A stretch of 64,000 bases of DNA from a virus. The DNA lies in IMG/VR virus record IMGVR_UViG_3300020394_000267, positions 27,070 through 91,069 of that record. One strand, written 5' to 3'. Position numbers and translations under genes: made by a program. The notes beneath the pieces were generated by a model. That model made no database searches, had not been told where the DNA came from, and saw only the letters and a program-made list of their open reading frames with translations. This document shows, piece after piece, positions 1-64,000 of the stretch (position 1 is its first letter; each line of letters opens with the position of its first letter).

Positions 1-1935
1 GGTAGAGAGTATGACAAAATATCAAAACAGAAAAAAGAACTAGAAAAACTAGGGTATGAAACTGCCATGATAATGGTTAATACAGACCTAGATACTGCTG
101 TCAGTAGAGACAAACAAAGAACTAGAACATTGGGTGCAGATAAAATCAGTCCAATGTGGCAATCAGTACAAAAAAACATTGGTAGATTTTCAAACCTCTT
201 CAAACAGAATTTTTTCATTGTAGACAATTCAGATGGTGCCGACTATAAAAAAGGTTCGTTGTCTGTATATAGAAGTATTATGTCTTGGTCAAAGAGACCA
301 CCACAACATAGACTTGCCAAGGCGTGGATTAAAGACCAGAAACAACAACGCAATATCAAAGAAGCAGAATTACCACCACATCTCAAGAGACATTTTGACA
401 AGGACGGAAATGTTAAGAAGGGTTCTTGGAAATCTGGTGATTGGAAAGCAGATAAGAAACAACCAAAAGTCAAGTTTACAGTAAAAGATGTGACACCGAA
501 AGGATATGGCCCCAGAGAAGATATAGACAAAATGGACATGGGTGATGTCATTAAAGATTTTTACAAGAGTGATGCACCTCAGTTCAAAGGCAAATCCAAA
601 AAGAAACGCAGAGAGATGGCGATTGCCGCTAAACTTGCTACTGAGTGCAAGGACGAAAAAGATTTCAAACCACATATGATGTATGACCCTAAAACTGGTA
701 AAGGTGTTAAGGCGAATACTTACATGCAACATGTCGCTTTAGATAAGAAGGGGTATGTCCACGAGAAACCAGAAATAAAAGAAGATTTAAGAAAGTGGTT
801 TGGTAAAGGTAAGAAGGGGGATTGGATTCGCGTAGGCACAGATGGTGAAATCAAGGGAGATTGTGCAAGAGAGCCTGGCGAGGGTAAACCAAAGTGTATG
901 CCTAGAGACAAGGCACACAGCATGTCTAAAAAGGACAGGGCGACATCTGCCAGAAGGAAACGCAGAGAAGACCCAGTTGCAGATAGGAAGGGTAAAGGTG
1001 GAAAACCAATTATGGTTAAAACCGATGTGAAGGAAGATGTAAAAATTAGTAGATATGAATGGGGTAGACCAGACGGCACAGAATATATGAAAGCGCTGAC
1101 GCCTGGCGAGCCTGGTAAAACTACTAAAAAGAACAGGTCAAATGGAAATCTCAAACACTACAAGGCAGTATGTGAAGAAGGAGATAAAGAAGAATTAAAA
1201 TCAATAGCATCTGCAACCCACGACCAAATACACAAAGATGTAGATGGGACTCAAGATGACTTTGAGGGAATTATTACCCTTGATACTATTGATAACGATT
1301 GGACTGCGATATTCACAGAACCAGAAATAGAAGCACTTGAACACGAAGTTGATGAATTATCTTTTGAAGATATGATGGGTCTGGGAATGTATGACCAAGA
1401 CGAATTAGAAGATTTTGAGGCATTTGACCAAGATGTAGACTGGCACGATGAAGTACAAATAACTGAAGTTCTATCCATTCAAGGTAGAATGAAAAGACGA
1501 TTTGCTGCTAGAAGAAATAGACAAAAACTTAAAGTTGCTCGAATGAGAGCCGCGAGGAGGGCAGCTGACCCAACTAGGTTGAAGAGGCGTGCTACTCGTG
1601 GTGCGAGGAATATGCTCAAGAACAGGATTGCGAGAGGTAGGGATTTGGGTTCATTGCCACCCGCTGAGAAGGCTCGTATTGAAGGTATGGTTATGAGATT
1701 TTCTGGATTAGTATCTAGGATTGCTCAGAGAATGATACCTATTGTTCGTAAGAACGAAATGAAAAGATTGAAATCTGGTTCAAGACAGAAATCCCAGAAG
1801 GCGAAGAAGTATAATCCAAAGAAAGCATTGGCTTCTGCTTCAAAACAGAAGGGTAAAAAGTTTAAGGCAAGTAAGAAAACATTTGCTAAACCAAAATTAG
1901 CAAGTAAACCAAAGGCGGCGAAGAAAACGAAATGA
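1..1935 (+). CDS. Modular Lys/Glu-rich protein, probable internal head/virion protein (5' partial; N-terminal part resembles the end of a P-loop kinase-like domain)
   Basis: Frame 1 is open from base 1 (GREYDKISKQKKELEKLGYETAMIMVNT...); short modules separated by IKE/VKE/ITE motifs; very basic C-terminus. Confidence 0.6.
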   Translation, partial: GREYDKISKQKKELEKLGYETAMIMVNTDLDTAVSRDKQRTRTLGADKISPMWQSVQKNIGRFSNLFKQNFFIVDNSDGADYKKGSLSVYRSIMSWSKRPPQHRLAKAWIKDQKQQRNIKEAELPPHLKRHFDKDGNVKKGSWKSGDWKADKKQPKVKFTVKDVTPKGYGPREDIDKMDMGDVIKDFYKSDAPQFKGKSKKKRREMAIAAKLATECKDEKDFKPHMMYDPKTGKGVKANTYMQHVALDKKGYVHEKPEIKEDLRKWFGKGKKGDWIRVGTDGEIKGDCAREPGEGKPKCMPRDKAHSMSKKDRATSARRKRREDPVADRKGKGGKPIMVKTDVKEDVKISRYEWGRPDGTEYMKALTPGEPGKTTKKNRSNGNLKHYKAVCEEGDKEELKSIASATHDQIHKDVDGTQDDFEGIITLDTIDNDWTAIFTEPEIEALEHEVDELSFEDMMGLGMYDQDELEDFEAFDQDVDWHDEVQITEVLSIQGRMKRRFAARRNRQKLKVARMRAARRAADPTRLKRRATRGARNMLKNRIARGRDLGSLPPAEKARIEGMVMRFSGLVSRIAQRMIPIVRKNEMKRLKSGSRQKSQKAKKYNPKKALASASKQKGKKFKASKKTFAKPKLASKPKAAKKTK

Positions 1936-2408
1936 TTACATTCAAACAATTATTAGAAAAAAATGTACCGACCAATCCAAAGTTATGGTCTAAATTTAAA
2001 TCACAGGCAAAGGCGAAGTTCGATGTCTATCCTTCAGCATACGCGAATGGATGGGCTGCGAAACAGTACAAGAAAGCTGGTGGTGGATGGAAGACTGTAT
2101 CTGAATCTTTATCTGAAGAGACTGGCGAAGAAATCACTATCATTACAGAAGAGGGTGAAAAGAAGAAAGTCAAATTAGGTAAAGTCCAGAGAGGCGGCAG
2201 TAAGAAATTTTATGTACATGTCAAGAACGATAAAGGCAATGTTGTCAAAGTATCGTTTGGAGACCCGAATATGGAAATCAAACGAGATGACCCAGAACGC
2301 AGAAAGTCATTTCGTGCAAGGCACAATTGCGACAATCCAGGCCCTCGCTGGAAAGCAAGATACTGGAGTTGTAAGCAATGGAGGGCCGGTTCCAAAGTAG
2401 AGGATTAG
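1932..2408 (+). CDS. Two-module basic protein of T4-like phages, probable internal head protein
   Basis: N-terminus MITFKQLLE resembles the T4 capsid-targeting sequence MKTYQEFIAE; modules YPSAYANGW and SFRARHNC...ARYWSC. Confidence 0.6.
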   Translation: MITFKQLLEKNVPTNPKLWSKFKSQAKAKFDVYPSAYANGWAAKQYKKAGGGWKTVSESLSEETGEEITIITEEGEKKKVKLGKVQRGGSKKFYVHVKNDKGNVVKVSFGDPNMEIKRDDPERRKSFRARHNCDNPGPRWKARYWSCKQWRAGSKVED

Positions 2409-2409
2409 T

Positions 2410-2649
2410 ATGATTGAGTGGTTAAAGCGGTTACTTTACGAAGAGTGGGAGATAACAATTTTCTATCCCGCTGAGACAAGAGTATTAGCAGACGGAACCA
2501 GAGTCGAAAGTTTGAAACCAAAAACATATAGGGCAAAAGCTTTGAAGAAGATATCTGAAAAACATTTTAAGTTTGTTGATACAGAGGGTGTACTACATGA
2601 AATAAGAGTAGTAAATCCTGTAGGGTATGACATTAAAAAGGTATACTAA
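2410..2649 (+). CDS. Hypothetical protein
   Basis: 79-aa ORF, GAGG RBS, tightly packed with neighbours. Confidence 0.6.
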   Translation: MIEWLKRLLYEEWEITIFYPAETRVLADGTRVESLKPKTYRAKALKKISEKHFKFVDTEGVLHEIRVVNPVGYDIKKVY

Positions 2650-2858
2650 TGGAAGGTACAGTCTCACACATTACACCAACTATACCCACAGCGAGTTCTA
2701 CTCATTCGTGGAGTGATAAACAAGTTGTTACCAAGGTGTACAACGGTGGTGAGGGACAGGTCATGGTAAAACAAGATATATACAATACTACTATTTACGA
2801 TATGTATGGTAATAAACAGTCTGTGACTACTTCACATACTATAGATTACCTAATTTAA
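2649..2858 (+). CDS. Hypothetical protein
   Basis: 69-aa ORF with TAATG overlap with the upstream gene. Confidence 0.55.
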   Translation: MEGTVSHITPTIPTASSTHSWSDKQVVTKVYNGGEGQVMVKQDIYNTTIYDMYGNKQSVTTSHTIDYLI

Positions 2859-2899
2859 ATTATGTTCATGTGATTGTTGGGCCCCTAGCACTTGAACTT

Positions 2900-2941: not shown

Positions 2942-5176
2942 ATGTCCAGCAGATTAGACAGAATAATTAGGGAAGTCCTTACAGAAGGGCAAAGTACCCT
3001 ATTAGAAGCGGACTTGACAAGGAGACTTGACATGCTCGTGAGACAGGGATTAATGCCTGCCTCTCAATTACCTATACTAAAACGCGGTTTAGAGAAATTC
3101 AACCAAGGTAAAGTGCCTGCACCGAATGAAAGAAACGCGGTTAATACACTACTAAACGGTATGATGTTCATCGTATTAGGTGACGATACTGTATTCAATA
3201 GAGCAAGAACTTCTGTACAAAAGAACAGATATCAGACAGAAGAATTTGATGACCTTGAAGAGAAGATGACTGTGGATATTGACCATAGTGGTGAGAAGGA
3301 CGATGCTGCTAAAAAACATGGTATCACATTAAAAAGAACTGGTTCTACTACAGTCAATGCTACAGGGTCACGCAAGAACCTCAAAAAATATCTAACGCAC
3401 CATCATGGCGGAGACAAGAAAGATGCCGCTGATGTACACAAGAGTGTATTCAAAGAAGAACAAGTCGCAATGAGGATGGCGATTGAAGAAGATAAAGATT
3501 GGCCTAGACCTTTTACAAAAGCTGAAAGGTCAGAATTTATGCGTCCCAAAGAAAAGTCTGCTGAAGAAACCAAAGCGATAAAAGACCGCATGAAGGCAAA
3601 GAATAAATCAAGACCTAAAGGTGTACAAGAAAGCGAAGAATTAGATGAAATATCTGATAAGATGAAACTCAATTACATTAAGAAAGCTAACAAAGAAATC
3701 ACAAAGTCGGAAAAAGAGAGAGATGAGATTCAGAAGAGCGATAAGCCAGGTCATGACCAGTCATATAAAAGCATTATGGATTTAAAACATAAATCTGATG
3801 CAGATAAAAGAAGAAAGGGTGTTAGACAAGCTAGAAGTACATTGCAAAAAGAAGAACAACTAGACGAGTATGGTGCAATGTCAAGTGATAAGGCATCACA
3901 CGATACTGGTGGATTCAGAATTTCAAATAAAGACGCCTCTGCTGCTAAAGAAAGAGCAAAGAAAAAGAGTGCAGAGAAACGCGACAAGTTATCAAATATA
4001 ATCAAAAAGAACACCATCCAGAAAGGGCCTATGAAAGGTTACATGACGGATGAAGTTAATCAAGGGGAAGAAAAAATGGATATTGATTGGACAAAAAATC
4101 CTTTCGCTCAAGCAAAAGCCATGGCTGAAGGAAAATTTAAAGACATGGCTACTAGGCAGTCCGAAGAGGAAAGACTCAAGGCAGAGAAAAAAGCTAAGAG
4201 ACTTTCTGATAAAAAGAGTAAAGAAGAAAAAGAGACTGACCCAGGCTTAGACGAGGGTGTTGCTAAAAATACTCTTGATATCTATCAGGCACACGCGGAT
4301 AAGAAAAAGAAAGATAGTCTCAAAGTGGGTCAGAAGGCACCCGATGGGGCGTCAAAAGCCAATGAACGCCAGTTGAGTTCAATCGCAAAACAAATGAACA
4401 AGGCAGTTGATAAAGCAAACGCTAAACTCAAGGAAGAACTAGAAGGACTACCAGAGTTAGATGCGATGGACTATGAGATGTGGGAAGCATATCAGTCCCC
4501 TACAAAGAACAACTACACCGACAAGGAACTTAGACAGGCGAAAGGTATCGCATTTGATAAGAGATACAAAGGTGGTAACATGACAGGTGCTGCTAAGGCA
4601 ATGGAGAAAATCAAGAAAGGTTTATCCGACCATCCTGTTGCTTCTAAAGCATTAAGAAAAGCAAACGAAGAGAACATGAAAGATGAGTGGTTAGACTTGT
4701 TTGATGGTGTAGAAGATTTCAATCAAATTATTGAGATGTCTTATAAAGAAAAGTTTAATTCTATGTTGAAGAAGACAGGTAAAACTCTTGCTGGTATGTC
4801 ACCAGAAGAGAAGAAGAAATTCTTTAACAAAGTAGATGGCGCTCACGATGCAGTAAACGAAAACAAAGCATTTAGAGATGCTGCTAGGGATTACGCGAAA
4901 GATGATAAGAAAGGACTTGCACCTACTAAGAAGGATGCACCTAAAGTATCAGACGCGAAGAACGCCAAAGAAATCGAACATATCGTACCTCAAATGAGGA
5001 AAGCTATTTCAGTAGGTAAGAAAGTGCAATTTAAAGATGGGAAACATCACACAGTTTCCAAGGCACACGCCGCTAAATTCTTGAATAAATACATGAGTGG
5101 CAAACCCGCTGATAAAGAAAAAATGCAATCGCATGCCCACGCAAGTCATAAGAACTTCATGGATCATGCAAAATAG
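2942..5176 (+). CDS. Large Lys/Glu-rich modular protein, probable internal head protein
   Basis: 744 aa; repeated LDE/LEE/VNE motifs; late promoter and GGAG RBS upstream. Confidence 0.6.
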   Translation: MSSRLDRIIREVLTEGQSTLLEADLTRRLDMLVRQGLMPASQLPILKRGLEKFNQGKVPAPNERNAVNTLLNGMMFIVLGDDTVFNRARTSVQKNRYQTEEFDDLEEKMTVDIDHSGEKDDAAKKHGITLKRTGSTTVNATGSRKNLKKYLTHHHGGDKKDAADVHKSVFKEEQVAMRMAIEEDKDWPRPFTKAERSEFMRPKEKSAEETKAIKDRMKAKNKSRPKGVQESEELDEISDKMKLNYIKKANKEITKSEKERDEIQKSDKPGHDQSYKSIMDLKHKSDADKRRKGVRQARSTLQKEEQLDEYGAMSSDKASHDTGGFRISNKDASAAKERAKKKSAEKRDKLSNIIKKNTIQKGPMKGYMTDEVNQGEEKMDIDWTKNPFAQAKAMAEGKFKDMATRQSEEERLKAEKKAKRLSDKKSKEEKETDPGLDEGVAKNTLDIYQAHADKKKKDSLKVGQKAPDGASKANERQLSSIAKQMNKAVDKANAKLKEELEGLPELDAMDYEMWEAYQSPTKNNYTDKELRQAKGIAFDKRYKGGNMTGAAKAMEKIKKGLSDHPVASKALRKANEENMKDEWLDLFDGVEDFNQIIEMSYKEKFNSMLKKTGKTLAGMSPEEKKKFFNKVDGAHDAVNENKAFRDAARDYAKDDKKGLAPTKKDAPKVSDAKNAKEIEHIVPQMRKAISVGKKVQFKDGKHHTVSKAHAAKFLNKYMSGKPADKEKMQSHAHASHKNFMDHAK

Positions 5177-5800: not shown

Positions 5801-5811
5801 GGAGATAAAGC

Positions 5812-7258: not shown

Positions 7259-7694
7259 TTTAGACACAAAAATAGCTCTTATGGAGAACGATATCAGACA
7301 GATGGGGGGACTGTTTGATAGACTTGATGTATCCATAGAAAAGATTACAGAGTTAAATACCTCGATTAAGGAGGTTCTTGCGGTGCATGAACAAAGAATT
7401 ACTGCCGCTGAGGTAGACTTAGAAAGAACATATGATACTTTTGAAGAGAAGTATGAACAATTACATTCGCGTATATCTACCACTAACAGGGAATTATCAA
7501 AAGAACTGAAAGATAATACCGCCGCTGTACAAGACACTTTAAAGGAACTAACTGCTCAAATAACTGAGCACGCGAATCACCATGACGATAGAATAAGGGC
7601 CCTCGAAAAAAGACAGTGGATGATGATGGGTGCTGCCGCTATTTTAGGATTCTTAATAGGAAATGCAGAAGCTTTATCGCTAATTTTCTCTTGA
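7242..7694 (+). CDS. Coiled-coil protein with C-terminal transmembrane helix
   Basis: Heptad pattern; RIRALEKRQW followed by a hydrophobic tail. Confidence 0.65.
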   Translation: MANQTNLDTKIALMENDIRQMGGLFDRLDVSIEKITELNTSIKEVLAVHEQRITAAEVDLERTYDTFEEKYEQLHSRISTTNRELSKELKDNTAAVQDTLKELTAQITEHANHHDDRIRALEKRQWMMMGAAAILGFLIGNAEALSLIFS

Positions 7695-7719
7695 CATTTG
7701 CTCTTAAATATGAGATCAT
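7691..7719 (+). promoter_or_regulatory. Sigma70-type early promoter TTGACA-N17-GATCAT with extended TG
   Basis: TTGACA 7691-7696, GATCAT 7714-7719; same design at 25948, 29928 and 31876. Confidence 0.75.
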
Positions 7720-7751
7720 GATCTCGTGAATAAGAGAATAAGGAGAATAAT

Positions 7752-7946
7752 ATGAGTCATTGGGTAAACGATAGAATAGCTGACGATGCGATAGATACTG
7801 TCGCTAATATGTCAGATAATGATGTCAAGAAAAATTTATTTAACAGAGGGAAGAGAGTTCTTCCTAAAGATATGGATGCTAAAAGAGACATCTTAATAGA
7901 CCTAGTTTTTGATGACCTAATGTCAAGACCAGGCCCCCACGGTTAA
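7752..7946 (+). CDS. Hypothetical early protein
   Basis: AAGGAG RBS, own promoter, 64 aa. Confidence 0.7.
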   Translation: MSHWVNDRIADDAIDTVANMSDNDVKKNLFNRGKRVLPKDMDAKRDILIDLVFDDLMSRPGPHG

Positions 7947-7965
7947 AAAAATTTAAAGAATTCGC

Positions 7966-7994
7966 TTGACTTTTAATGCACTTATGTGTATAAT
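7966..7994 (+). promoter_or_regulatory. Sigma70 promoter TTGACT-N17-TATAAT (probably a leaderless primase mRNA)
   Basis: -10 box ends 7 nt before the ATG at 8002; no RBS in between. Confidence 0.75.
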
Positions 7995-8001
7995 GTGACC
8001 T

Positions 8002-9045
8002 ATGCTTTATGTAGATGTGAAATATATCAACTTGATATCTCATCATTTTGAGAAATTCAAGAAGAAGAATGATTATCTTTGGAATGTAAGATGCCCGTTC
8101 TGTGGCGACTCGCGTAAAAATCTCAATAAAATGCGTGGGTACTTTTTCCGTAAAGACAATAACATGATATACAAATGCCACAACTGTGGTTTTGGTGCTA
8201 GCATGAATACAGTTCTCAAGGAACTCGCACCCACTACTCATAAAGAATATTGTCTTGAAAAGTTTGGTGAGAATGAGAACAAAAATTGGGAACCAAAGGG
8301 TGCAAACTGGACTCCAAACGGACATAAATTGTTCGATGATAAACCAGTAGAACCGCCTAAGTTCACACCAAAATTTAGTTTATTTGATAAACTTGTGGAT
8401 AGATTGGATACTCTTCCATACGACCACGAGGCAGTTCAATATGTGCAAAGTAGAAATATCCCAAATGATAAATGGGATCGACTTTACTATATTGACAACA
8501 TAAAAAATATAGTCCAACTCAATGACAAATACACGGAATCAATAGTTACTGAAGAACCCAGATTGGTTATCCCCTTCTTTGACCAAAATGGGCAATTGAT
8601 GTCGGTGTCTTTGAGGGCTATGAGGGGGGAAACACTAAGGTATATTCTTGTAAAAGTTAAAGAGGATGCACCTACAGTGTTCGGTTTAGACAAGGTTGAT
8701 ATGTCTAAACCTATATCTGTTGTTGAAGGCCCGATAGACAGTCTGTTTTTAGAAAACAGTATTGCCTGTTCTGGTACTGCCTTCAACAAGATTGAAGAAT
8801 TGGGTATAGACCGTGATAAGATTACAATCATATTCGACAATCAACCGCGTAACAAAGAAGTTGTAAAGCTGGTTGAGAAGTATGTCGAGATGGATTATAA
8901 TGTTGTCATATGGCCTAGTCCATTGACTCAGAAAGATATAAATGATATGGTGAACGATGGTATTGATGTGAGCGATGTTATTACTTGTAATACACATAGT
9001 GGACTGAGTGCCAAGTTTTTGTTAAATCAATGGAAAAAATGTTAG
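8002..9045 (+). CDS. gp61: DNA primase (T4 gp61-like)
   Basis: Zn ribbon RCPFCGDS...YKCHNCG; TOPRIM motifs VVEGPIDSLF, FDNQPRN, KDINDM. Confidence 0.95.
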   Translation: MLYVDVKYINLISHHFEKFKKKNDYLWNVRCPFCGDSRKNLNKMRGYFFRKDNNMIYKCHNCGFGASMNTVLKELAPTTHKEYCLEKFGENENKNWEPKGANWTPNGHKLFDDKPVEPPKFTPKFSLFDKLVDRLDTLPYDHEAVQYVQSRNIPNDKWDRLYYIDNIKNIVQLNDKYTESIVTEEPRLVIPFFDQNGQLMSVSLRAMRGETLRYILVKVKEDAPTVFGLDKVDMSKPISVVEGPIDSLFLENSIACSGTAFNKIEELGIDRDKITIIFDNQPRNKEVVKLVEKYVEMDYNVVIWPSPLTQKDINDMVNDGIDVSDVITCNTHSGLSAKFLLNQWKKC

Positions 9046-10903: not shown

Positions 10904-12702
10904 TGGCGACAGAGGATTATTTAGGAATTAAGATAGACAGGGACAGAGACCAACTATTTGATAAGTTGGGAATACAACGCCTGCAAGAAAGTTACATGAA
11001 AGAGGACGAAGAAAGTCCACAGGAGAGGTTTGCTTTTGTAAGTAAACAGTTTGCATCTAGCGATGAACATGCTCAACGGTTGTATGATTACGCTAGTAAA
11101 CACTGGTTGTCTTACTCTACACCTATTCTATCATTTGGTAGGTCTAAAAAGGGTCTGCCTATTTCATGTTTTTTAAATTACATAAACGATACAGCGGAGG
11201 GATTAGTTGAAAATTTATCGGAAACAAATTGGCTTAGTATGCTTGGGGGCGGTGTTGGTATTGGGTTTGGTATCCGAGCTAGCGATGATAAGTCTACTGG
11301 CGTCTTGCCACATCTCAAAACCTACGACTCAAGTAGTCTGGCATATAGACAGGGGCGTACCCGCCGAGGGTCATATGCTGCCTACCTCGACATTAGTCAC
11401 CCCGATATTACAATGTTTCTCGAAATGCGTAAACCAACAGGAGACCAAAACCTCAGATGTCTAAACTTACATCACGGTATTAATATCAGTGATAGGTTTA
11501 TGGAGATGATTGAAAGGTGCATGTCAGACCCAGATGCTGATGACAGGTGGAATCTAACAGACCCACATACAGGAGAAGTACGCGAGACTGTATCTGCTAA
11601 ACATCTATGGCAGAAGATACTTGAAATGCGTATGGAGACAGGGGAACCATATTTACATTTTGTTGACACTAGTAACAGAGAAATGCCAGAGTGGTTAAAA
11701 GATAAAGGATTAAAAATTAGTCAGTCTAATCTTTGTTCTGAAATTATCCTACCGACAAATGAAAAGAGGACTGCTGTATGTTGTCTTTCGTCTGTTAACC
11801 TAGAACACTATGATGCATGGTCAAAGAGTACCACATTCTTAAAAGATGTGGCAGAGATGTTAGACAATGTGTTACAGTATTTTATTGATAACGCACCAGA
11901 GACAGTATCGCGGGCAGTTTACTCAGCGAAACAGGAAAGAAGTATTGGTGTTGGTGCATTGGGATTCCATGCATATTTACAAAAGAACAACATACCATTT
12001 GAAGGATTCATGGCAAAATCCACTAATATAAGAATGTTCAAATTGATAAGGGGGAAATTAGATGAAGCAAACTTGGAACTTGGTAGGGAGAGAGGCGAAG
12101 CTATTGATGCGAGAGGCACAGGAAGAAGATTTAGTCATGTTATGGCTGTTGCTCCTAATGCTTCCAGTAGTATTATTATGGGAAACACTTCGCCGAGTAT
12201 TGAACCGTATCGCGCTAACGCTTACAGGCAAGACACATTATCTGGGGCTTATCTCAATAAGAATAAGCATCTGGATGTTGTCATTAAAGATAAATGCGAG
12301 AAGAATAAAAGGTTGGATTATGACAAAATTTGGTCATCGATAATTGCCAACGATGGGTCAGTACAACATGTATCATGTCTGGATGAGAAAGAGAAAGAAA
12401 TTTATAAGACTGCTATGGAGATTGACCAGAGATGGGTAGTCGAACATGCATCCACCAGACAAGAATGGATAGACCAAGGACAATCTGTTAATCTATTTTT
12501 TAGACCAGATGTCAACATAAAGTATTTACATGCAATACACTATCTCGCGTGGAAACAAGGTATGAAAACTTTGTACTATTGTAGGTCAGAGAAGTTAGGA
12601 AAGGCAGACAAGGTATCCAAACGCATTGAAAGAGAAGCGATAAAAGAAATTGATTTTCAGAGTATGATTGATGGTGAAAACTGTGTTGCATGTGAAGGAT
12701 AA
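10903..12702 (+). CDS. nrdA: Ribonucleotide reductase class I, alpha subunit
   Basis: PISCF, SNLCSEI, AVAPNASSS, KTLYYCR, C-terminal CVACEG. Confidence 0.97.
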   Translation: MATEDYLGIKIDRDRDQLFDKLGIQRLQESYMKEDEESPQERFAFVSKQFASSDEHAQRLYDYASKHWLSYSTPILSFGRSKKGLPISCFLNYINDTAEGLVENLSETNWLSMLGGGVGIGFGIRASDDKSTGVLPHLKTYDSSSLAYRQGRTRRGSYAAYLDISHPDITMFLEMRKPTGDQNLRCLNLHHGINISDRFMEMIERCMSDPDADDRWNLTDPHTGEVRETVSAKHLWQKILEMRMETGEPYLHFVDTSNREMPEWLKDKGLKISQSNLCSEIILPTNEKRTAVCCLSSVNLEHYDAWSKSTTFLKDVAEMLDNVLQYFIDNAPETVSRAVYSAKQERSIGVGALGFHAYLQKNNIPFEGFMAKSTNIRMFKLIRGKLDEANLELGRERGEAIDARGTGRRFSHVMAVAPNASSSIIMGNTSPSIEPYRANAYRQDTLSGAYLNKNKHLDVVIKDKCEKNKRLDYDKIWSSIIANDGSVQHVSCLDEKEKEIYKTAMEIDQRWVVEHASTRQEWIDQGQSVNLFFRPDVNIKYLHAIHYLAWKQGMKTLYYCRSEKLGKADKVSKRIEREAIKEIDFQSMIDGENCVACEG

Positions 12703-13312
12703 TGTAGAAAAAGAAATACCACTAAATAAAAAGATTGCGGTTTTAGTTAGTGGTGGATGGGATAGTGCCGTTCTATGGTATCTAGTGAAATCCGTATGTA
12801 TTGAACGCAATCAAGAATGTGAACCTTTTACTGTTCCAAAACTAGATGGTGCTGAGTATTACGCTAATCTAGTCTTAGAATGGTCTTCTGAGCGTCTAGG
12901 ACACGCTCTAATGAAAACAACCATCGTAGGTGATATATCATCCGATAATCCCTCTGATTATGTTTTAAGTGGTGGTTATGAGATATGGAATGAGGGATTG
13001 GCGGAACACTTGTTTAGTGCGGTAAACATGTATCCACCGAATCAAAGGTCTCTCATGCCTGAAGGGTATCCTCTACCCAATGATAGATTTGTCAAGACAG
13101 AGGAACATACTCATTTAAGTCAGCCATTCGCTGACTTGACAAAAGACAAGATTATACAATTAGGATTTGATTTAGGTATAGCGAATGAGATTGCGCCCAT
13201 TACGCATAGTTGTACCGAATTGGACAGGGGCAGATGTAATAACTGCTGGTGGTGTAAAGAAAGAGAATGGGCATTTAAAGAAATAGGACAGGTAGATATT
13301 GGAGAGAACTAA
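12668..13312 (+). CDS. QueC-like PP-loop ATPase (7-cyano-7-deazaguanine synthase family); start possibly GTG 12692
   Basis: SGGWDS PP-loop; C-terminal THSC....RCNNCWWCKER Zn site. Confidence 0.7.
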   Translation: MMVKTVLHVKDNVEKEIPLNKKIAVLVSGGWDSAVLWYLVKSVCIERNQECEPFTVPKLDGAEYYANLVLEWSSERLGHALMKTTIVGDISSDNPSDYVLSGGYEIWNEGLAEHLFSAVNMYPPNQRSLMPEGYPLPNDRFVKTEEHTHLSQPFADLTKDKIIQLGFDLGIANEIAPITHSCTELDRGRCNNCWWCKEREWAFKEIGQVDIGEN

Positions 13313-14917: not shown

Positions 14918-16033
14918 ATGTGGAACTATGATGATGTTAACTCTATAACCATAGAACTATCTAGTCTATGTAATGCCGCTTGTCCGTGGTGTCCTAGATA
15001 TGAAGATTTTTCTGAGGTAGTTAACAGACAACTAGAACCACAGTATATAACGATTGACCAGTTCAAAGAATGGTTTCCGCCAGACTTTATGTCGAGAATA
15101 AAATTATGGGCATTTACAGGTGATTACGGTGACGCTGGTACTAATCCAGATTTACCAGACATCATAAGGCACATATACAAACATAACCCAGATGCTCAAC
15201 TATCGATGAACACTAACGGTGGTATGAGAACACCAGATTTTTGGGGGTTACTTGGTCAGTTATTTTCTAGGAAGGAACATAACAACATGATATTCTCAAT
15301 AGATGGACTTGAGGATACTAACCACATATACAGGAGAAATGTTAGGTGGAATAAAGTCATGAAAAATGTTCTTGCTTTTCTGGATGCTGGTGGTAAGGCG
15401 ACATGGGAGTGTTTGGTATTCAGACACAACAAACACCAGATAGACGCGATACAAGATTTGGCAAATTACATGGGATTCTCAGAGGTGCATTTTAAAATGC
15501 CAAAGGGATTTGAAAAAGACAATATGAAAGTCAAGGACAAGAAAGGCAATCACACATATACAATATATCCCACCAGCAAAGACCAGATATCAACAGGATA
15601 TCCAGATTTACATGGTAAGAAGGCAGAAGACCTAGACTATGAAGAAATTAGAGATGACATGGAGTCATATTATTCTAATGAACAGGGAGAGATAAAATGT
15701 TTTTCCCAAAGAGATGACTTGACAGAGTTGAAGATTACATCGTGGGGTACAGTGTATCCATGTTGCCATTTTGGGCATATCGCTAAACATCCGCGAGAGA
15801 ATCAACAGTATTACAAAGCTCAACTCATAGATATATTTAAGGATAAAGATATATCTCTCAAGTCAAGAACATTAAAAGAGATATTGGATGATGACCCATT
15901 CAATTGGATTTATAACAGTTGGAAAGAAAAATCATGTCTGGCATGTTGGTCAAATTGTGGAGTGTCAGACAATAAACAACCAGTGATGCAACAGATATTT
16001 AATAAGGAGGGTAAGTTATATGGCACAACATAA
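14918..16033 (+). CDS. Radical SAM protein with C-terminal SPASM/twitch-like Cys
   Basis: CNAACPWC, TNGG, FSIDG, VYPCC, CLACWSNC. Confidence 0.88.
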   Translation: MWNYDDVNSITIELSSLCNAACPWCPRYEDFSEVVNRQLEPQYITIDQFKEWFPPDFMSRIKLWAFTGDYGDAGTNPDLPDIIRHIYKHNPDAQLSMNTNGGMRTPDFWGLLGQLFSRKEHNNMIFSIDGLEDTNHIYRRNVRWNKVMKNVLAFLDAGGKATWECLVFRHNKHQIDAIQDLANYMGFSEVHFKMPKGFEKDNMKVKDKKGNHTYTIYPTSKDQISTGYPDLHGKKAEDLDYEEIRDDMESYYSNEQGEIKCFSQRDDLTELKITSWGTVYPCCHFGHIAKHPRENQQYYKAQLIDIFKDKDISLKSRTLKEILDDDPFNWIYNSWKEKSCLACWSNCGVSDNKQPVMQQIFNKEGKLYGTT

Positions 16034-16640
16034 TAACATACGCGGATGGATGATGGACGGTGACTATAATGCCATAGAGAAGGTTTGTTCAAAGTTTCTT
16101 GATAAGGATTATGTCGATGTATTTGAAATAGGAACTCTATATGGCAAAAGTGCCATTGCTTTTGATGACGCATTGAAAAGTGTACCCCATCATATCACCA
16201 CAATGGATGTGTGTGAGGGTTGGATAGGGCCTTCAGATGAAATAATAGAGATGTTGGGACTAGATGACAATTTCAAGGCAATGCGTGATGCAAATAGAAG
16301 TACAGCAGAAGAACAGTTCGATGAAATACATAGAAATATTCTGGATAGGGATATAACCTTTATTGATGATAAATGGGAAGCGGGTTATGAATATCCAGTA
16401 GTTTGCCCAGACATTGTGTTCTATGATGGTTCACATAGTTACGAGGAAACTAGAGATGTTCTTCAACATTTCTGTATAACTATGGAGAATGGGGGAACAG
16501 TTGTGATTGATGACTACAACCATACACAATGGGAAGGACTCAAAAAAGCAGTAGATGAGTTCATAGAAAAAACAGGGTTCGATATAACTTCATACCCAGA
16601 CTCAAAAATGATTTCAATAAATTTTAAGGGTAAACAATGA
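16020..16640 (+). CDS. Class I SAM-dependent methyltransferase (Methyltransf_24-like)
   Basis: EIGTLYGKSA, FYDGSHSYE, VVIDDY. Confidence 0.85.
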   Translation: MAQHNNIRGWMMDGDYNAIEKVCSKFLDKDYVDVFEIGTLYGKSAIAFDDALKSVPHHITTMDVCEGWIGPSDEIIEMLGLDDNFKAMRDANRSTAEEQFDEIHRNILDRDITFIDDKWEAGYEYPVVCPDIVFYDGSHSYEETRDVLQHFCITMENGGTVVIDDYNHTQWEGLKKAVDEFIEKTGFDITSYPDSKMISINFKGKQ

Positions 16641-17356
16641 TAGTTGATTTTTATGGATACGAATTAGAGTGTGATGAGACAGTATTCAGACCGACTACTG
16701 TTAGTGAACTAACCGCACCGCGAGTACCAGTGGAAGGTAAAAAGGTTTTAGACCTTGGATGTGGTGTCGGCCCACTATCAGTATACTTTGCTAAACATGG
16801 TGCAAAGTCTGTAACTGCCACCGATGTGTACGATAAACACATAGAATACACAAAGAAAAATGCAGAAAGAAATAATGTAGACATAGAGGTATTTGAGAGT
16901 GATATCTTTGAGAATGTCACAGATAAATATGATGTGATTTGTTGTGATGTGTCTGGTGTAGACAGAAGAATTGCAGAGTTGACAGGTTGGTTCCCAGAAG
17001 GAGTGCCCACGGCAGATACTACAGGCGCAGACTTAATATGCAAGGCAATGAAATCAGCACCAGAGTATTTGAATGAGGGTGGGGAGTTGTACATATGCAC
17101 AACATCATGGTCAGATTTACAGAAGATACAATTGATGATGATTTTTACCACACTTATGACTCAAGGTGAAGTCATACATTCACAGGACATTCCTTTTTCG
17201 CGTAGGTTGTTATCTAATCTGGATAACCTAGACTCGAAAAGAGGAGCAGTACCCACAACAGAAAGTTATTTTTATACAAAGCAGGGGGATAGTTACACCA
17301 AGGATGGTGACAATTACACATGGAGATTCAACCTATGGCGTATGGCTATGATGTAA
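16637..17356 (+). CDS. Class I SAM-dependent methyltransferase (HemK/PrmC-like fold)
   Basis: VFRP, VLDLGCGVG, YLNEGGELY. Confidence 0.85.
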   Translation: MIVDFYGYELECDETVFRPTTVSELTAPRVPVEGKKVLDLGCGVGPLSVYFAKHGAKSVTATDVYDKHIEYTKKNAERNNVDIEVFESDIFENVTDKYDVICCDVSGVDRRIAELTGWFPEGVPTADTTGADLICKAMKSAPEYLNEGGELYICTTSWSDLQKIQLMMIFTTLMTQGEVIHSQDIPFSRRLLSNLDNLDSKRGAVPTTESYFYTKQGDSYTKDGDNYTWRFNLWRMAMM

Positions 17357-17655
17357 TGCAGAAGAGAATAGTTACAGCGTGGTTGATATTTTTGGGGATA
17401 GTCATGTTGCCTATTTTACCACTTATACCATACTCTAATTGCTGGTATTACTCATTCAAGCGATATATACTAGAAGGATTTAAAGGCAAAATTATTCCAG
17501 TTGCCAGTAGGAGGTGGAGAGGATACCATTGTGTTTATCAAGACGCGGAAGGACAGTTGTGGGAATATACAATGAAGAAAATGCCAAGACAAATGCCTTG
17601 GTGGAGAATGTTTATTTACAATGGAGTAGAAAGGAGATATCGTGGGAAGATATGA
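17356..17655 (+). CDS. Hypothetical membrane protein
   Basis: N-terminal TM helix; TAATG coupling. Confidence 0.55.
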   Translation: MQKRIVTAWLIFLGIVMLPILPLIPYSNCWYYSFKRYILEGFKGKIIPVASRRWRGYHCVYQDAEGQLWEYTMKKMPRQMPWWRMFIYNGVERRYRGKI

Positions 17656-18236
17656 ACTATTTAGATTGGTTAGAAAAGAAAGTTTTTGATGGTAGGGTAG
17701 AAAATCAATCTGTATTAGAACTTGGTGCTTTGAATGATAGGATAACTAATGTCATTCGTAGATGTAATCCAAAGTCAATATACACAGTAGACCCAGACCC
17801 TACTGGTAAACCAGATTTTATAGGGACTGCTAATGATTTTTATTCTGGTGCAACAGAACCATATGATGTTGTAGTGTGCATGGGATTATTATATCATTTG
17901 CATAGTCCTTGGCATTTAGTAGAATTAATTATTAATCATTCTCGACCAAAGATATTAATACTGGAAACTGCTAACGCTATCAATCATGTGAAGGGGTGGT
18001 CAATTAACCCAGAAGAGCATAATGCATTAGCTAATGCTTACGCGGATAGAGAAATAAAACACCCTATGCAGATAAACAGTAGTGTTACTAGAGATAATTG
18101 GATTGAGGGTATAGAAACAACACCGATGAAATTACAACAACATTGGATTTATCATCTGATTCCTTTTGAACAAGATGATTTTTTCGTAAAGGCAAAACAA
18201 AACATGTGGATGGGGGTATTTCAATGGGAAGGATAG
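17652..18236 (+). CDS. Class I SAM-dependent methyltransferase
   Basis: SVLELGA, YDVVVCMGLLYHLHSP, LILET. Confidence 0.8.
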   Translation: MNYLDWLEKKVFDGRVENQSVLELGALNDRITNVIRRCNPKSIYTVDPDPTGKPDFIGTANDFYSGATEPYDVVVCMGLLYHLHSPWHLVELIINHSRPKILILETANAINHVKGWSINPEEHNALANAYADREIKHPMQINSSVTRDNWIEGIETTPMKLQQHWIYHLIPFEQDDFFVKAKQNMWMGVFQWEG

Positions 18237-27251: not shown

Positions 27252-27479
27252 ATGGGTATGGAAGTACTCGCCGGCTTGTTCGGCATTTCAGTGTATGTGG
27301 CATATTCGCTAGGATTCAAAAAAGGAACATCTACATCAGCACAGGTAACTATGCTGATGATGAGAGAGTTTCTAAATGAAAGTCAAGGCAGTGATTGGAC
27401 AGACATCACATTAGGAAAAAACTTTAACAGGGTACATCGATGGATGCAACAGGTCGAAGATGCCACGGAAGAATCCTAG
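27252..27479 (+). CDS. Small membrane protein
   Basis: GAGGAG RBS; N-terminal TM helix. Confidence 0.6.
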   Translation: MGMEVLAGLFGISVYVAYSLGFKKGTSTSAQVTMLMMREFLNESQGSDWTDITLGKNFNRVHRWMQQVEDATEES

Positions 27480-29962: not shown

Positions 29963-30400
29963 ATACTGAGAGATGAGGAGATTATATAGTGTTGTGACAA
30001 TAATTTAAACCCCAGTTAAACCGCACCATCTCACCGTGGTTGAGGTTCAAGGAAGAGTGCTATGGGGTCGGAAATGAATCACGGTGCCGAGTCGCAAAGG
30101 TGGCATGACCACGCTCCGATGAGGTAATGACAGGCAGGGCTGGCTGCCATGAACAAGGTGGAGAGACAACTACTAAAGGAGAGTCCCCAGTAGTGGCAAT
30201 GCACAAAGCAGTACCATGAAAAGGACAGGGCGGATGTCAAAGGGTGAGACCCGGCCGCTAACAGGGTTGTGCCTCAATACACACGCGCTCCCCCACGGTT
30301 AGGGGAGCATCACCCAGCAGCAGAGGGGTCAGGCGGGCCTATGCTTTGGGATCGAGGTGGTCGCCCTTACAAGTGCATCTGGCATCCCCCCATATGCATT
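29963..30400 (+). ncRNA. Putative large structured non-coding RNA (family unassigned; ends approximate)
   Basis: GC-rich, no credible ORF, downstream of tandem promoters; helices ACCCCA/TGGGGT, GGCAG/CTGCC, ACTACT/AGTAGT, GGGT/ACCC, GCTCCCC/GGGGAGC. Confidence 0.55.
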
Positions 30401-33883: not shown

Positions 33884-33953
33884 GCGGTGGACGGTATTCG
33901 TACAATCCGTTTCCAACGGACAAGGTTAGGTGAAACTCCTAGACGCCGCTCCA
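33884..33953 (+). tRNA. Non-canonical tRNA-Gly (TCC)
   Basis: Acceptor GCGGTG/CGCCGC, discriminator T, encoded CCA; anticodon arm TCCG-TTTCCAA-CGGA; T arm TTAGG-TGAAACT-CCTAG; mini D arm GTA-TTCG-TAC. Confidence 0.75.
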
Positions 33954-35174: not shown

Positions 35175-36575
35175 TTAACTTATCTTTACAAAGTATGAAG
35201 ATTGGTCAACATCTGAACTCGCGTATCTAAACATCTTTGTTATAAGGTCGTGTTGTTTCTTCTTACTTGCACCAGTTGAAGCAAATGCTTCTAGGAACAT
35301 TAGACAGATAGACTTAGACATTCTAAAGTTGTCACCTTGTTCGTGGTTTGCCCACTCTTGTAGAAATACCTTTTCTGATACTATGTCAATTGATGGTTTA
35401 CTTTTAGAATTATGTTTCTTATAAAGTTGGTATGCCTTTGATGGCCATTTTGCATCGGTCTTGATTGACGCGAGAAATGCCTTTTCAGAACCTTTTCCAT
35501 TGTAAATATCATTACCGAATACTTGTTTGCAATAGAAGTCTACATTACCCCCACCTATTTTACCACCAGCGGCTGAACCACCTTTAATCTCACCCTGCCA
35601 TGAAGTGTCACCACCGAATGTTCTGAATTGTACCTCACCACCACTGGTGTCTATGTAGATGTCTTGAGAACTAAAGAAGTCCCCAGTTTTACCATATTTG
35701 AAACTGTTATAGGTAAATGTATCTTTGTTCGCCATTTGTTTCGGAGTATTGAACTCTTTCGCGGTTGCTGGAGTACTCTTACCTATTTTCTTGAGTGATA
35801 TACCAAGAAGTTTACCCGCCTTTGCAAGTTTCATAACTTCTGCATTTAATTCACCCCAACTAGATGTGCTTTCTGCTAAAGGTTTTTCTAAAACACCAAA
35901 TGTAGTTGCCCATATATCGCCGGGATTCCATTTGTCATGTGAGAATGAGCCTGGTGCTTGTGGGTCATCTGAATCCTTATCTATTTTGTGACATTCTGCT
36001 TTGGCATCATACAGACCTTTCATAAAAGGTGACCCTCGATGAAAATGTACAGCACCATTCCTAGTCATTTTCCTGCCATATTTTTCCCACAGTTTATTTG
36101 CGGTCTTTATATAAACATCCGTTTCAATCCAATCAGCAGGCCCTTTATTTAAACAGTCTGTAAGTGATTTGTCGGTATGGGCAAACTTAGATGCGGATTT
36201 GAGTTGTGTTGGGGATACAGATTTACATGCACCCTTCTTTACATTGAATACATATGCATTGTAGAAACATTGTAGTGATTCTGTCAGTGCGGTATCAGCT
36301 GCACCGCCACCAGAACCACCACCGCCACCGAAATCTTTATCCTTGAATATCTGTGACCGTCTTGCTTCTTTGGTTTGTCTGTTAGATTTGTAGGTTAGTA
36401 TTTCAGTTTTTCTATCATAAGATATACCGTCTACTTTTGTACCAGACGCAGATGAACCTATAACAAATTTCTTTTTGTCTTTTATTTTTAGGTCGAATAT
36501 GTCTAGCCTCGACTCACCAGCGTAATCGCCAGCGGAAGAACTCTTTCGCATATCATCTGCTGATAGTGTGGGCAT
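35175..36575 (-). CDS. Conserved phage protein, possible PD-(D/E)xK nuclease fold
   Basis: TALTESLQC, DKWNPGDIW...LLGISLKK motifs. Confidence 0.55.
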   Translation of the reverse strand: MPTLSADDMRKSSSAGDYAGESRLDIFDLKIKDKKKFVIGSSASGTKVDGISYDRKTEILTYKSNRQTKEARRSQIFKDKDFGGGGGSGGGAADTALTESLQCFYNAYVFNVKKGACKSVSPTQLKSASKFAHTDKSLTDCLNKGPADWIETDVYIKTANKLWEKYGRKMTRNGAVHFHRGSPFMKGLYDAKAECHKIDKDSDDPQAPGSFSHDKWNPGDIWATTFGVLEKPLAESTSSWGELNAEVMKLAKAGKLLGISLKKIGKSTPATAKEFNTPKQMANKDTFTYNSFKYGKTGDFFSSQDIYIDTSGGEVQFRTFGGDTSWQGEIKGGSAAGGKIGGGNVDFYCKQVFGNDIYNGKGSEKAFLASIKTDAKWPSKAYQLYKKHNSKSKPSIDIVSEKVFLQEWANHEQGDNFRMSKSICLMFLEAFASTGASKKKQHDLITKMFRYASSDVDQSSYFVKIS

Positions 36576-61984: not shown

Positions 61985-62838
61985 AGTATCATAATGATGA
62001 AACCATAAAAGTTGATGGACTACATTTCTATGGATGTTCTTTTGTTGCTGGACAAGAATTATTAGATGAAGAAATGGGTAGTCCTATGTCTATACCAGTA
62101 GAACAGATGGCTAGACAGAAAAATGAACCTATTGAACAGTATTATAAAAGAAAATTATCCAGAGAACTTTTATTTAAAAAGAAGATAAAACTCGAAAGTC
62201 AATTAGCATGGCCTCAATACATGTGTAATACATTAAAGGTTAGATGTTTTAACCACGCGACACATGGTGCATCTATGACCGAAATAAAAGGCAGACTTTT
62301 TAATGATGTCATAGAAGGAAATATATCATCTTCTGAAGCGGTGGTTGTAGGACTTACTGGATTTGCTAGAGAAATGGTATTTAGTGAAAATACAAGTGGA
62401 CAGGAAATGTGGAAGACGAGAGAAGGTGGAGTTAGGAGTATGGTTGTTGCTACTGACTATGAACGAAGGGGTGATAATGACTTTGCTAGGAAGTATATGG
62501 ACTTGAAAGGAACTTTCACTTTATTTTATTATTTTCTTCATGAAATATACAGTATTATCAATTTATGCAAAATAAATGACATAAAATTTTACTTAATACC
62601 CATGTTAGACCGTTTTGAGTCAGAATTTTACGAAAAACAGTTTGACTTTGATATAAAATCTCAAGAATTTAGTTCTCACATAGATTTCCTAGAATCAGAA
62701 ATAGATAAGTATATAATAATAGGAACAAAGGTTGACCCTTTAGGGGGCAACATCATTAAGAGACTACCAAGGGGCCATCCTTGTATTGAGAGTCACGAAA
62801 AATATGGTATCAAGGTTGGTAAGAAGTTATTAACATGA
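61972..62838 (+). CDS. SGNH-hydrolase-like protein
   Basis: FYGCSFVAG, NHATHGAS, GHPCIESH. Confidence 0.6.
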   Translation: MREIKYHNDETIKVDGLHFYGCSFVAGQELLDEEMGSPMSIPVEQMARQKNEPIEQYYKRKLSRELLFKKKIKLESQLAWPQYMCNTLKVRCFNHATHGASMTEIKGRLFNDVIEGNISSSEAVVVGLTGFAREMVFSENTSGQEMWKTREGGVRSMVVATDYERRGDNDFARKYMDLKGTFTLFYYFLHEIYSIINLCKINDIKFYLIPMLDRFESEFYEKQFDFDIKSQEFSSHIDFLESEIDKYIIIGTKVDPLGGNIIKRLPRGHPCIESHEKYGIKVGKKLLT

Positions 62839-63140
62839 GTAATATACTGAAGTTCCCTAAAAAACACAGATGGGAACCTACTGGATACAGAATAAATTTA
62901 TATACAGAAGAGGACATTTATATCGTTCTTTTATGTCTTAACATATCCGATGATCTTGATGACCCAAAAAAATGGGTCAGGCAAGACCTACGCACCCTAG
63001 AACCAGAATTTGTCATCGATAAAATGTCTGACTGCCTAGACAATCAAATAATATCAGATCCATGTAAAAAACAAATACGCAGAATTATTCAGTCTGCTGA
63101 AGTTCTGCCATTATCAGCACTAAGAGGAGAGACTATGTAA
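62835..63140 (+). CDS. Hypothetical protein
   Basis: 101 aa; MSNILKFP N-terminus. Confidence 0.6.
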   Translation: MSNILKFPKKHRWEPTGYRINLYTEEDIYIVLLCLNISDDLDDPKKWVRQDLRTLEPEFVIDKMSDCLDNQIISDPCKKQIRRIIQSAEVLPLSALRGETM

Positions 63141-63197
63141 TAGAAATCTTTATGATGGAACTCAAATTTATCAATCAACCATCTGGAGAGATACCAA

Positions 63198-63959
63198 ATG
63201 CCAAGACGCAAAACCAACCTTCAAGTAATCGAAAATTTAAATTCCGATGTGAGAAAAGTGAAGGAAAAATCAACTTTAAAAATGCGTATAGAGGATTTAA
63301 TTACAGTCGATGCAATCACAGAAACCCAAGGACACTTTTTCTCAGAATATAACAAAGATGCTAAAGCAATGTTACTGCATGGGTGTGCTGGTACAGGAAA
63401 AACATACATCGCTCTGTACAAAGCATTAGAGGAGGTTTTACAAAGAGGAAACCCATATAAAAAAGTTGTTATCATTAGGTCTGCTGTGCCATCAAGAGAG
63501 ATAGGACATTTGCCGGGCGATGAAACCGAAAAGACCGCTGTTTACATGCAACCATATATTGACATGTGTTCAGATTTATTCCCCAAAAAACAACAATCAT
63601 TTCAAAGATTAATGGAACAAAAATATGTAGAGTGGATGATTACATCTTTTGTTAGGGGTATTACACTAGACAATTCAATTATTATAGTAGATGAATGCCA
63701 AAATATGAATGATATGGAGATAAATTCAATCATAACTCGCGTGGGACATAGTAGTAAAATACTGTTTTGCGGAGACTTTAGACAAACAGACCTATATAAG
63801 AGAGGTGATTTAAGTGGATTGCAGAAATTCATGGTAATTGCTGAAAATATGCCTTCATTTAGGACTTTAGAGTTCGATACAGACGATATTGTTAGGTCAG
63901 ACCTAGTAAAAGAGTACTTAATGGCGAGAATGTCATATGAAGAGGAATATGGTACTTGA
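63198..63959 (+). CDS. phoH: PhoH-family ATPase
   Basis: GCAGTGKT, IGHLPGD, SFVRG.TL, DECQN, GDFRQTDL, DIVRS. Confidence 0.95.
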   Translation: MPRRKTNLQVIENLNSDVRKVKEKSTLKMRIEDLITVDAITETQGHFFSEYNKDAKAMLLHGCAGTGKTYIALYKALEEVLQRGNPYKKVVIIRSAVPSREIGHLPGDETEKTAVYMQPYIDMCSDLFPKKQQSFQRLMEQKYVEWMITSFVRGITLDNSIIIVDECQNMNDMEINSIITRVGHSSKILFCGDFRQTDLYKRGDLSGLQKFMVIAENMPSFRTLEFDTDDIVRSDLVKEYLMARMSYEEEYGT

Positions 63960-63984
63960 CATTTGCTTCAAAGGCTAGTATAAT
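63956..63984 (+). promoter_or_regulatory. Consensus sigma70 promoter TTGACA-N17-TATAAT
   Basis: Exact consensus at the phoH stop. Confidence 0.8.
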
Positions 63985-64000
63985 GGTCACATAATTATAG

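Follow-up and report, generated by a model that had tools for sequence, protein, structure and literature searches.

Short palindromes survive beside RGC/GCY in a clade of T4-like marine phages, suggesting a context-specific DNA mark

Introduction

A restriction site is blocked when its flank completes the motif of a second, modifying enzyme, as in the overlap of Dam or Dcm with restriction enzymes. In Chlorella viruses, the pair M.CviJI/R.CviJI acts on RGCY, with the relaxed CviJI* activity cutting RGCN and YGCY, not YGCR, and with M.CviJI being a C5 methylase. Enzymes of the Mom family have short, loose motifs and provide broad anti-restriction. In coliphage CAjan, dPreQ0 is written by DpdA at GA and GGC (PMC7544227). 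In phage Mu, Mom takes glycine from Gly-tRNA and attaches it to adenine N6 within SAS, which results in N6-carbamoylmethylation (PMC13219725; PDB 8bv8). Here we investigated a 64,000-nucleotide stretch of viral DNA (the window; bases 27070-91069 of the 91,069-bp IMG/VR viral contig IMGVR_UViG_3300020394_000267), in which many short palindromes of restriction type are purged and those of the form CC..GG survive only beside a protective flanking base.

The locus shares with phage restriction-site avoidance a strong depletion of 4- to 6-bp palindromes against a protein-preserving null, but differs from ordinary avoidance in that sites are spared by a single flank base, Pro-Gly dipeptides are depleted and doubly flanked sites are in excess. 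As in Dam/Dcm overlap, immunity would arise only when the flank completes the modifying motif, one flank corresponding to a hemi-modified site; here, however, the inferred motif has three bases (RGC/GCY) and is known from an evolutionary footprint, not from a digest. CAjan is similar in its short, non-palindromic motif that includes GGC and protects overlapping restriction sites, whereas here no DpdA/preQ0 pathway was found, GATC is purged ~14-fold so that GA is unprotected, and AGC protects like GGC. The likeness to Mu lies in a clear PF25680 member in the contig, together with a phage-encoded tRNA-Gly-like RNA. Unlike in Mu, the footprint falls on the G:C pair of RGC/GCY, sites with SAS adenines are purged, and the Mom gene stands in a T4-type replication operon, Mu's being in a late operon with com. 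Finally, the half-site logic around a central GC resembles that of CviJI, all contexts but YGCR being covered, which matches the absence of YGCGCR here; unlike CviJI, the clade has no PF00145 gene and AGCT, a CviJI site, is not spared.

Results

The contig, its relatives and the null models

The contig (38% G+C, CheckV completeness 47%) comes from a T4-like marine myovirus. Its T4-type genes encode the gp45 clamp, the gp44 clamp loader, a family-B polymerase, UvsX, a gp41-like helicase and NrdA/NrdB, and the polymerase shares ~47% identity with those of T4-like cyanophages. A megablast search with 12 kb of the window against GenBank phages gave no match. Relatives were reached via the contig's Mom gene, namely two IMG/VR genomes, G001 (137 kb, 83% complete) and G002 (161 kb, 91% complete), and the complete genome of the cultured OM43 phage Melnitz. 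The contig, G001 and G002 (the clade) show 83-94% nucleotide identity and are not mutually independent; Melnitz is independent, with a PolB ~46% identical to the clade's.

Expected counts were obtained from a codon-shuffle null, in which synonymous codons were permuted within each of 130 called genes in 150 replicates, preserving all protein sequences and the gene-by-gene codon usage, and from a second null of Markov expectations of order 1 to 3. Pooled figures, given as observed/null, take in the contig, G001, G002 and Melnitz. For CC..GG sites, flanked means a 5′ G and/or a 3′ C, and unflanked means neither (H-site-D).

CC..GG sites survive only beside a 5′ G or a 3′ C

We found that all 21 CCWGG sites in the window are flanked, 11 of them as GCCWGGC, 4 with the 5′ G only, 6 with the 3′ C only and 0 with neither. 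The same holds for CCGG (9/9), CCATGG (6/6), CCTAGG (2/2) and CCGCGG (1/1) in the window, and for CCWGG (27/27), CCGG (12/12), CCATGG (9/9), CCTAGG (3/3) and CCGCGG (1/1) in the whole contig. A sequence-only reading of the window had already noticed by eye that these palindromes occur only beside GGC/GCC, and full counting bears it out; in its site list several coordinates were off by one, and the CCGG sites at 30251 and 40253 as well as 11 of the 21 CCWGG sites were not listed. Against the codon-shuffle null, the contig has 0 H-CCWGG-D vs 44.1 ± 5.9 expected (shuffle minimum 30), 0 H-CCGG-D vs 45.7 ± 6.1 and 0 H-CCATGG-D vs 10.8. GGWCC, which the same reading had not found, is indeed absent from the window and from the contig (0 vs ~57 expected), and GGCC occurs 61 times in the window. 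The doubly flanked form GCCWGGC is present 14 times in the contig vs 1.7 expected (shuffle maximum 6). The Markov nulls agree with the codon-shuffle null. When all 4-, 5- and 6-mer palindromes were scanned with each of the four flank bases, CCWGG with G..C (p 4e-14) and CCGG with G..C (p 4e-6) were both among the contig's top five conditional patterns, and CCATGG with G..C (p 1e-4) ranked ninth.

Upon pooling the four genomes, unflanked sites are absent or nearly so (CCNGG 0/329, CCGG 0/246, CCTAGG 0/23, CCATGG 2/54), whereas flanked sites are near or over the null for CCNGG (246/140), CCATGG (35/33) and CCTAGG (13/9). For CCGG, a roughly twofold depletion persists despite the flank (63/125). 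Across the genomes compared, GCCWGGC occurs 7 to 13 times as often as in the null, an excess that would follow if every flank placed the mark on a single strand. CCAAGG and CCTTGG, which are not palindromes, are neither avoided nor influenced by their flanks. Additionally, among other T4-like marine contigs, those that purge CCGG do not spare it behind a G (0 vs ~46 expected), so a G flank is no general escape from CCGG-cutting enzymes. At one orthologous site the protective flank has swapped sides: the 5′-flanked Pro-Gly site at 35949 reads ACCTGGC in G002 and CCCTGGC in G001, with the 3′ C only.

Codon choice and dipeptide content follow the rule

Every coding CCWGG in the contig (26/26) lies in frame as CCW GGN, that is, as Pro-Gly. 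Pro-Gly is encoded CCN-GGN and always holds CCNGG, and therefore it cannot be removed by recoding. Glycine after proline is GGC in 24 of 28 pairs in the contig, where GGC makes up 12% of all glycine codons, and in the remaining 4 of 28 the preceding codon ends in G. In none of the four genomes does a Pro-Gly pair lack both flanks (0/28, 0/70, 0/74 and 0/64). Gly-Pro is written GGC-CCN or GGG-CCN in 36 of 36 cases, just as the sequence-only reading had stated. Furthermore, Pro-Gly dipeptides are depleted in the proteins, with observed-to-expected (O/E) ratios of 0.45-0.64 (contig 0.45); in HTVC008M, a related pelagiphage that does not avoid CCWGG, the O/E ratio is 1.12, and 21 of the 27 Pro-Gly pairs in its first 50 kb have neither flank.

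The flank rule is kept on minus-strand genes and at one intergenic CCWGG site. When read on the A strand, 26 of the 27 CCWGG sites are CCAGGC, because CCA GGC is Pro-Gly and its 3′ flank is the free third codon position; this asymmetry has its origin in coding rather than in mark chemistry, and with CCGG holding no adenine, an adenine reading of it (Mom SAS or SASNY) was ruled out. In Edwardsiella phage vB_EtaM_ET-ABTNL-9, the 38 kb around its Mom homologue contain no CCNGG and no Pro-Gly in 75 called genes, and the purge of CCNGG there reaches the protein level.

The protective context is RGC/GCY

We next considered CT..AG sites, of which unflanked copies are absent from the pooled genomes (CTGCAG 0/89, CTTAAG 0/80, CTCGAG 0/24). 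The survivors occur only after a 5′ G, where they overlap GCT/AGC, and these are still two- to threefold depleted (CTGCAG 26/68, CTTAAG 14/33, CTCGAG 4/13). The R/Y degeneracy was first suggested by half-site flank counts and then tested directly on GCGC: the four genomes together have YGCGCR at 0/80, and GCGC with R.. or ..Y is at the null level. For sites starting in CG or CA, a 5′ G is of no help (flanked CGWCG 0/80, CASTG in G001 2/47, CGCG in Melnitz 1/17). In all three classes (CC..GG, CT..AG and GCGC) the base pair inside the site is the middle pair of RGC/GCY, on which the putative mark is therefore placed. The protecting motif is RGC/GCY and is wider than the GGC/GCC of the sequence-only reading, whose general idea of a context-specific protective mark, with only unprotected sites purged, stands.

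Other palindromes are purged as well. Against the codon-shuffle null, GATC is found 24 times in the contig vs ~268 expected and ACGT is found 0 times vs ~167 expected. CTGCAG, TCTAGA, TTCGAA, GGTACC, GTGCAC and TGCGCA are also purged in the window, and many 6-mers are at zero. GAATTC and AAGCTT had both been described as not avoided, which is correct for GAATTC (26 vs ~33 expected) and wrong for AAGCTT (5 vs ~23 expected), both against the codon-shuffle null. Most of the surviving GATC sites belong to an intergenic motif, ATATG(G/A)GATCATGATC, that recurs 20-40 nt ahead of gene starts; it is probably a promoter or operator element in which GATC withstood the purge.

Several simpler patterns were considered and rejected. 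Pure GpC methylation fails, as the internal GC does not protect CTGCAG, GTGCAC or TGCGCA. A general biophysical rule of any site plus C fails on three counts, with GATC-C and ACGT-C not being spared, G being ineffective before CG and CA, and G-flanked CCGG being purged in other phages. An Ala-Ala codon artefact does not explain G-CTGCAG, for which the effect is kept under the codon-aware null (CTGCAG 0/89); the G-CAGCTG effect is only partial under that null. Finally, ACAGG appears in excess only because the absence of CCAGG distorts the Markov expectation.

Flank rules in other phages

In the complete genome of the Pelagibacter phage HTVC008M, GATC occurs only as GGATC/GATCC and GANTC only as GGANTC/GANTCC, with 0 unflanked GATC vs 64 expected in the first 50 kb; GTATAC and CAGCTG also favour a C flank. 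Three T4-like marine contigs (IMG/VR loci L055, L057 and L120) have absolute flank rules of their own, with GTAC confined to GGTAC/GTACC (0/35 against 29/19), CGCG confined to CCGCG/CGCGG and CTWAG found solely with G..C. Flank-conditional survival is common among T4-like marine contigs, for GTAC with G..C, CGCG with C..G and CCGG with A..T.

Candidate writers

The contig encodes a Mom-family protein in the gene order gp45, peroxiredoxin, Mom, nucleotidyltransferase-cupin, gp44. It matches PF25680 with 202 bits (E 1e-59, profile positions 2-197 of 202) and PDB 8bv8_A in phmmer (E 5e-24, residues 18-218), with the HYS, NSE..IS and VYQASNF blocks conserved, and it is 34% identical to Mu Mom. Among the 12 open reading frames (ORFs) that G002 has in common with Melnitz but not with HTVC008M, the Mom homologue is the sole recognisable DNA modifier, and a Pfam scan of the clade-specific G002 ORFs gave just one 2OG-Fe(II) oxygenase. 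We tentatively regard the Mom homologue as the most likely writer, at well below even odds and with a specificity unlike that of Mu Mom; a phage enzyme not recognised as such is nearly as likely. Downstream of Mom in G002, after the nucleotidyltransferase-cupin gene, lies a radical SAM-SDR fusion (91951-93681).

The tRNA-Gly(UCC)-like RNA of the window could serve as the glycyl donor for the Mom homologue. It is preceded by TTGACA/TATAAT (sigma-70-like) and TATAAATA (late) promoters, and neither ARAGORN nor Rfam called a tRNA at 33884-33953. The copy in G001 is identical, and in the G002 copy four base pairs of the D, anticodon and T stems have changed in a compensatory way, with the UCC anticodon kept, which supports the cloverleaf.

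Further Mom-bearing phages were of little use for an association test: sites are too scarce in the Psychrobacter phage and in Lactococcus PMBT69, the Edwardsiella phage, with no CCNGG and no Pro-Gly, was unusable, and the '64% Mom' contigs do not avoid CCNGG. A gene of Synechococcus phage S-SCSM2R has been published as 'methylcarbamoylase mom' (PMC12801897); its whole 244-kb record (PQ898602.1) gave no PF25680 match at E 0.01.

The sequence-only reading had proposed a different writer, either a DpdA supplied with deazaguanine by a QueC-like gene at 12668-13312, after the CAjan model, or a C5-methyltransferase. Neither is supported. The ORF matches Pfam QueC with 38 bits over residues 143-206 only, so that just its last 55 to 64 residues align, and it scores 28 bits against NCBIfam TIGR00364, for which the QueC equivalog cut-off is 150; no relative of it was found in the PDB, and it is not a QueC equivalog. 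No FolE or QueD was seen among ~60 ORFs scanned with Pfam, no separate search being made for either. PF01702 (TGT/DpdA) has no match in the contig (47% complete), G001 (83%), G002 (91%), the complete Melnitz genome or HTVC008M, and has matches in all 14 control genomes. PF00145 (C5 methylase) has no match in the contig, G001, G002 or HTVC008M, and one in Melnitz, its gene 5. PF01555 and PF02086 (N6/N4 and D12 methylases) have no match in any of these five genomes. The CAjan-type motif pair of GA and GGC also fails, with GATC purged (24 vs ~268) and AGC/GCT protecting too. Overall, the observation behind that reading is confirmed and extended, and its interpretation is partly supported.

Among the neighbouring genes of the window, the class-I methyltransferase at 16637-17356 is a secondary candidate writer on sequence similarity. 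Mad2, which it resembles, is the DNA N6-adenine methylase of the MADS defence system; the phage protein has CDVS in place of NPPY, and its G002 orthologue found no match in Melnitz. It belongs to a cluster (14918-18236) in which a radical SAM/SPASM gene stands ahead of three class-I methyltransferase genes, the Mad2-like one among them, and the radical SAM/SPASM enzyme could conceivably have a part in DNA modification. Separately, an island at 41080-62838 holds at least 6 radical SAM enzymes, four with an N-terminal SPASM domain, together with one gene each of fatty-acid desaturase-like and Asp/Asn hydroxylase-like type and with sugar-nucleotide genes (UDP-glucose dehydrogenase-like pieces, an NAD-dependent epimerase). 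The coordinates of the features are collected in Table 1.

Table 1. Features of the window and contig; positions are those of the window unless marked as contig.
Feature	Position	Strand	Remarks
Footprint	1..64000	.	many 4- to 6-bp palindromes purged; CC..GG, CT..AG and GCGC survivors overlap RGC/GCY
Doubly flanked CCWGG, GCCTGGC	873..879	.	Pro-Gly CCT GGC after codon ending in G
Surviving CCATGG, as GCCATGGC	4118..4125	.	
Surviving CCGG, as GCCGGC	27270..27275	.	
CCWGG with 5′ G flank only, GCCTGGT	35949..35955	.	Pro-Gly site
GATC-bearing intergenic motif	contig 4082, 19282, 34783, 58968		last two are window 7714 and 31899
Mom-family GNAT gene	contig 7663-8484		outside the window, ~18.6 kb upstream of window base 1
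tRNA-Gly(UCC)-like RNA, encoded CCA	33884..33953	+	cloverleaf fold
Small PP-loop ATPase ('QueC-like')	12668..13312	+	SGGWDS motif, C-terminal Cys cluster; alone between nrdA and nrdB
Radical SAM/SPASM enzyme	14918..16033	+	heads cluster with three class-I methyltransferases
Class-I methyltransferase, Mad2-/HemK/RsmC-like	16637..17356	+	PADLOC mad2 E 3e-23; NCBIfam, Pfam

Discussion

The counts establish the flank rule and its statistics, how it operates at the level of codons, and that the relatives conserve it. From this footprint we infer both a chemical modification and a phage-encoded writer: the virion DNA of the clade probably bears a context-specific mark on the middle G:C pair of 5′-RGC-3′/5′-GCY-3′, laid strand by strand. 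Host restriction-type nucleases would select against nearly all short palindromic targets, and target copies that overlap the mark, which would be written on each strand separately, would be immune and hence never purged. Where a target cannot be removed, most clearly in Pro-Gly with its constant CCNGG, synonymous positions would be shifted to create the mark, preferably on both strands. In the pairs GCCAGGC vs ACCAGGT, GCTGCAG vs ACTGCAGT and AGCGCT vs TGCGCA, the member overlapped by GCY would be the protected one. Protective modification is favoured by the absence of exceptions to the rule, the forced GGC after proline, the excess of doubly flanked sites and the flank swap at the orthologous site.

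A bolder proposal, which we consider somewhat unlikely, is that the Mom homologue moves a glycyl-derived group to the exocyclic amine of the cytosine (or guanine) in the middle pair of GCY/RGC. Several observations weigh against Mom as the writer of the mark. The target of Mu Mom is adenine in SAS (PMC13219725), flanked CCGG contains no adenine, and sites with SAS adenines are fully purged (GGACC, CTGCAG, GTGCAC, GTCGAC). With the footprint on G:C and SAS sites purged, the Mom homologue as writer would need both a new base and a new motif. A mark on SAS adenine does not explain the flank rule, although the homologue's own chemistry is not thereby settled. The link between Mom and the GCY rule comes from two independent lineages only. 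The favoured reading of a mark on RGC/GCY is itself weakened by AGCT, AAGCTT, TAGCTA and AGGCCT, which hold RGC but are depleted without flank dependence. Finally, HTVC008M, which has neither Mom nor a canonical methylase, shows an analogous flank rule on other sites, so flank-dependent survival needs no Mom; it is family-wide in T4-like phages, where it involves several motifs, and Mom can explain only part of it.

The mark could also be real and be written by an orphan or restriction-modification methylase of the host with RGC/GCY-like specificity, the phage merely exploiting it. Consistent with this, the clade lacks a canonical DNA methylase, the host of Melnitz is reported to encode a type II methylase (PMC9004378), the clade and Melnitz avoid a largely common set of sites, which could mean similar hosts, and HTVC008M, with a different host, has a different flank rule. 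However, the PolB proteins of the clade and Melnitz are only ~46% identical and nothing indicates a common host, and a rule with zero exceptions is hard to square with a host mark that is reliable in every host met. We know of no methylase with GCY specificity, which also counts against a host writer, and overall we judge it quite improbable. We give a similarly small chance to the explanation that there is no modification at all and that the selecting nucleases themselves fail at G..C- or R..Y-flanked sites, through extended or flank-sensitive recognition. The varied sites and flanks of conditional survival among T4-like marine contigs, and the rule of HTVC008M without a recognisable modifier, speak for it. 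Yet at least 8 unrelated specificities (CCWGG, CCGG, CCATGG, CCTAGG, CTGCAG, CTTAAG, CTCGAG, GCGC) would need one and the same exclusion, while a single trinucleotide rule covers all of these sites plus the failure of the G flank before CG and CA. Selection for both flanks, seen in GCCWGGC, would be needless if one flank abolished recognition, and other phages purge G-flanked CCGG too.

The two remaining explanations are weaker. That 7-deazaguanine is placed at GGC via a DpdA fed by the QueC-like gene, or that a phage C5-cytosine methylase acts on GCC, draws on the precedent of CAjan, which modifies GGC and GA with dPreQ0 (PMC7544227), on the PP-loop ORF in the window with its weak QueC similarity, and on the one C5 methylase of Melnitz. 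It appears very improbable given the lack of PF01702 in the contig, G001, G002 and Melnitz and of PF00145 in the contig, G001 and G002, the 28 bits of the ORF against a cut-off of 150, the protection conferred by AGC/GCT contexts and the purge of GATC, which contains GA. Pro-Gly is also a slow-translating context, and every coding CCWGG is a Pro-Gly pair, so that the pattern might be taken for a by-product of translation, through a preference among Pro-Gly codon pairs, or of mutational bias, with no selection at the DNA level. This has next to no likelihood: the rule is symmetric on both strands and holds in minus-strand genes and at the intergenic site, it is met via the third base of the preceding codon when glycine is not GGC, it governs CCGG, CCATGG, CTGCAG and GCGC in all reading frames, and in the first 50 kb of HTVC008M 21 of 27 Pro-Gly pairs have neither flank.

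Under the favoured reading of a strand-wise mark on RGC/GCY, a computational footprint alone would give the motif, the likely position and the strand-wise nature of a DNA modification, in a group of abundant marine T4-like phages without canonical DNA-modifying enzymes except the Mom homologue. Flank-conditional survival of restriction sites may thus be used to read modification motifs from the genomes of uncultured phages, and Melnitz, which is in culture and obeys the RGC/GCY rule, makes the prediction directly testable. The pattern also indicates that restriction pressure extends to which dipeptides the proteins contain. Should the Mom homologue prove to be the writer, the chemistry of the family goes beyond adenine; otherwise another writer remains to be found. 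Were Mom to act on cytosine or guanine as proposed, the modified DNA base would itself be new, as would this base specificity within the Mom family; the writer would be encoded in the replication operon and might be supplied by the phage's own tRNA-Gly.

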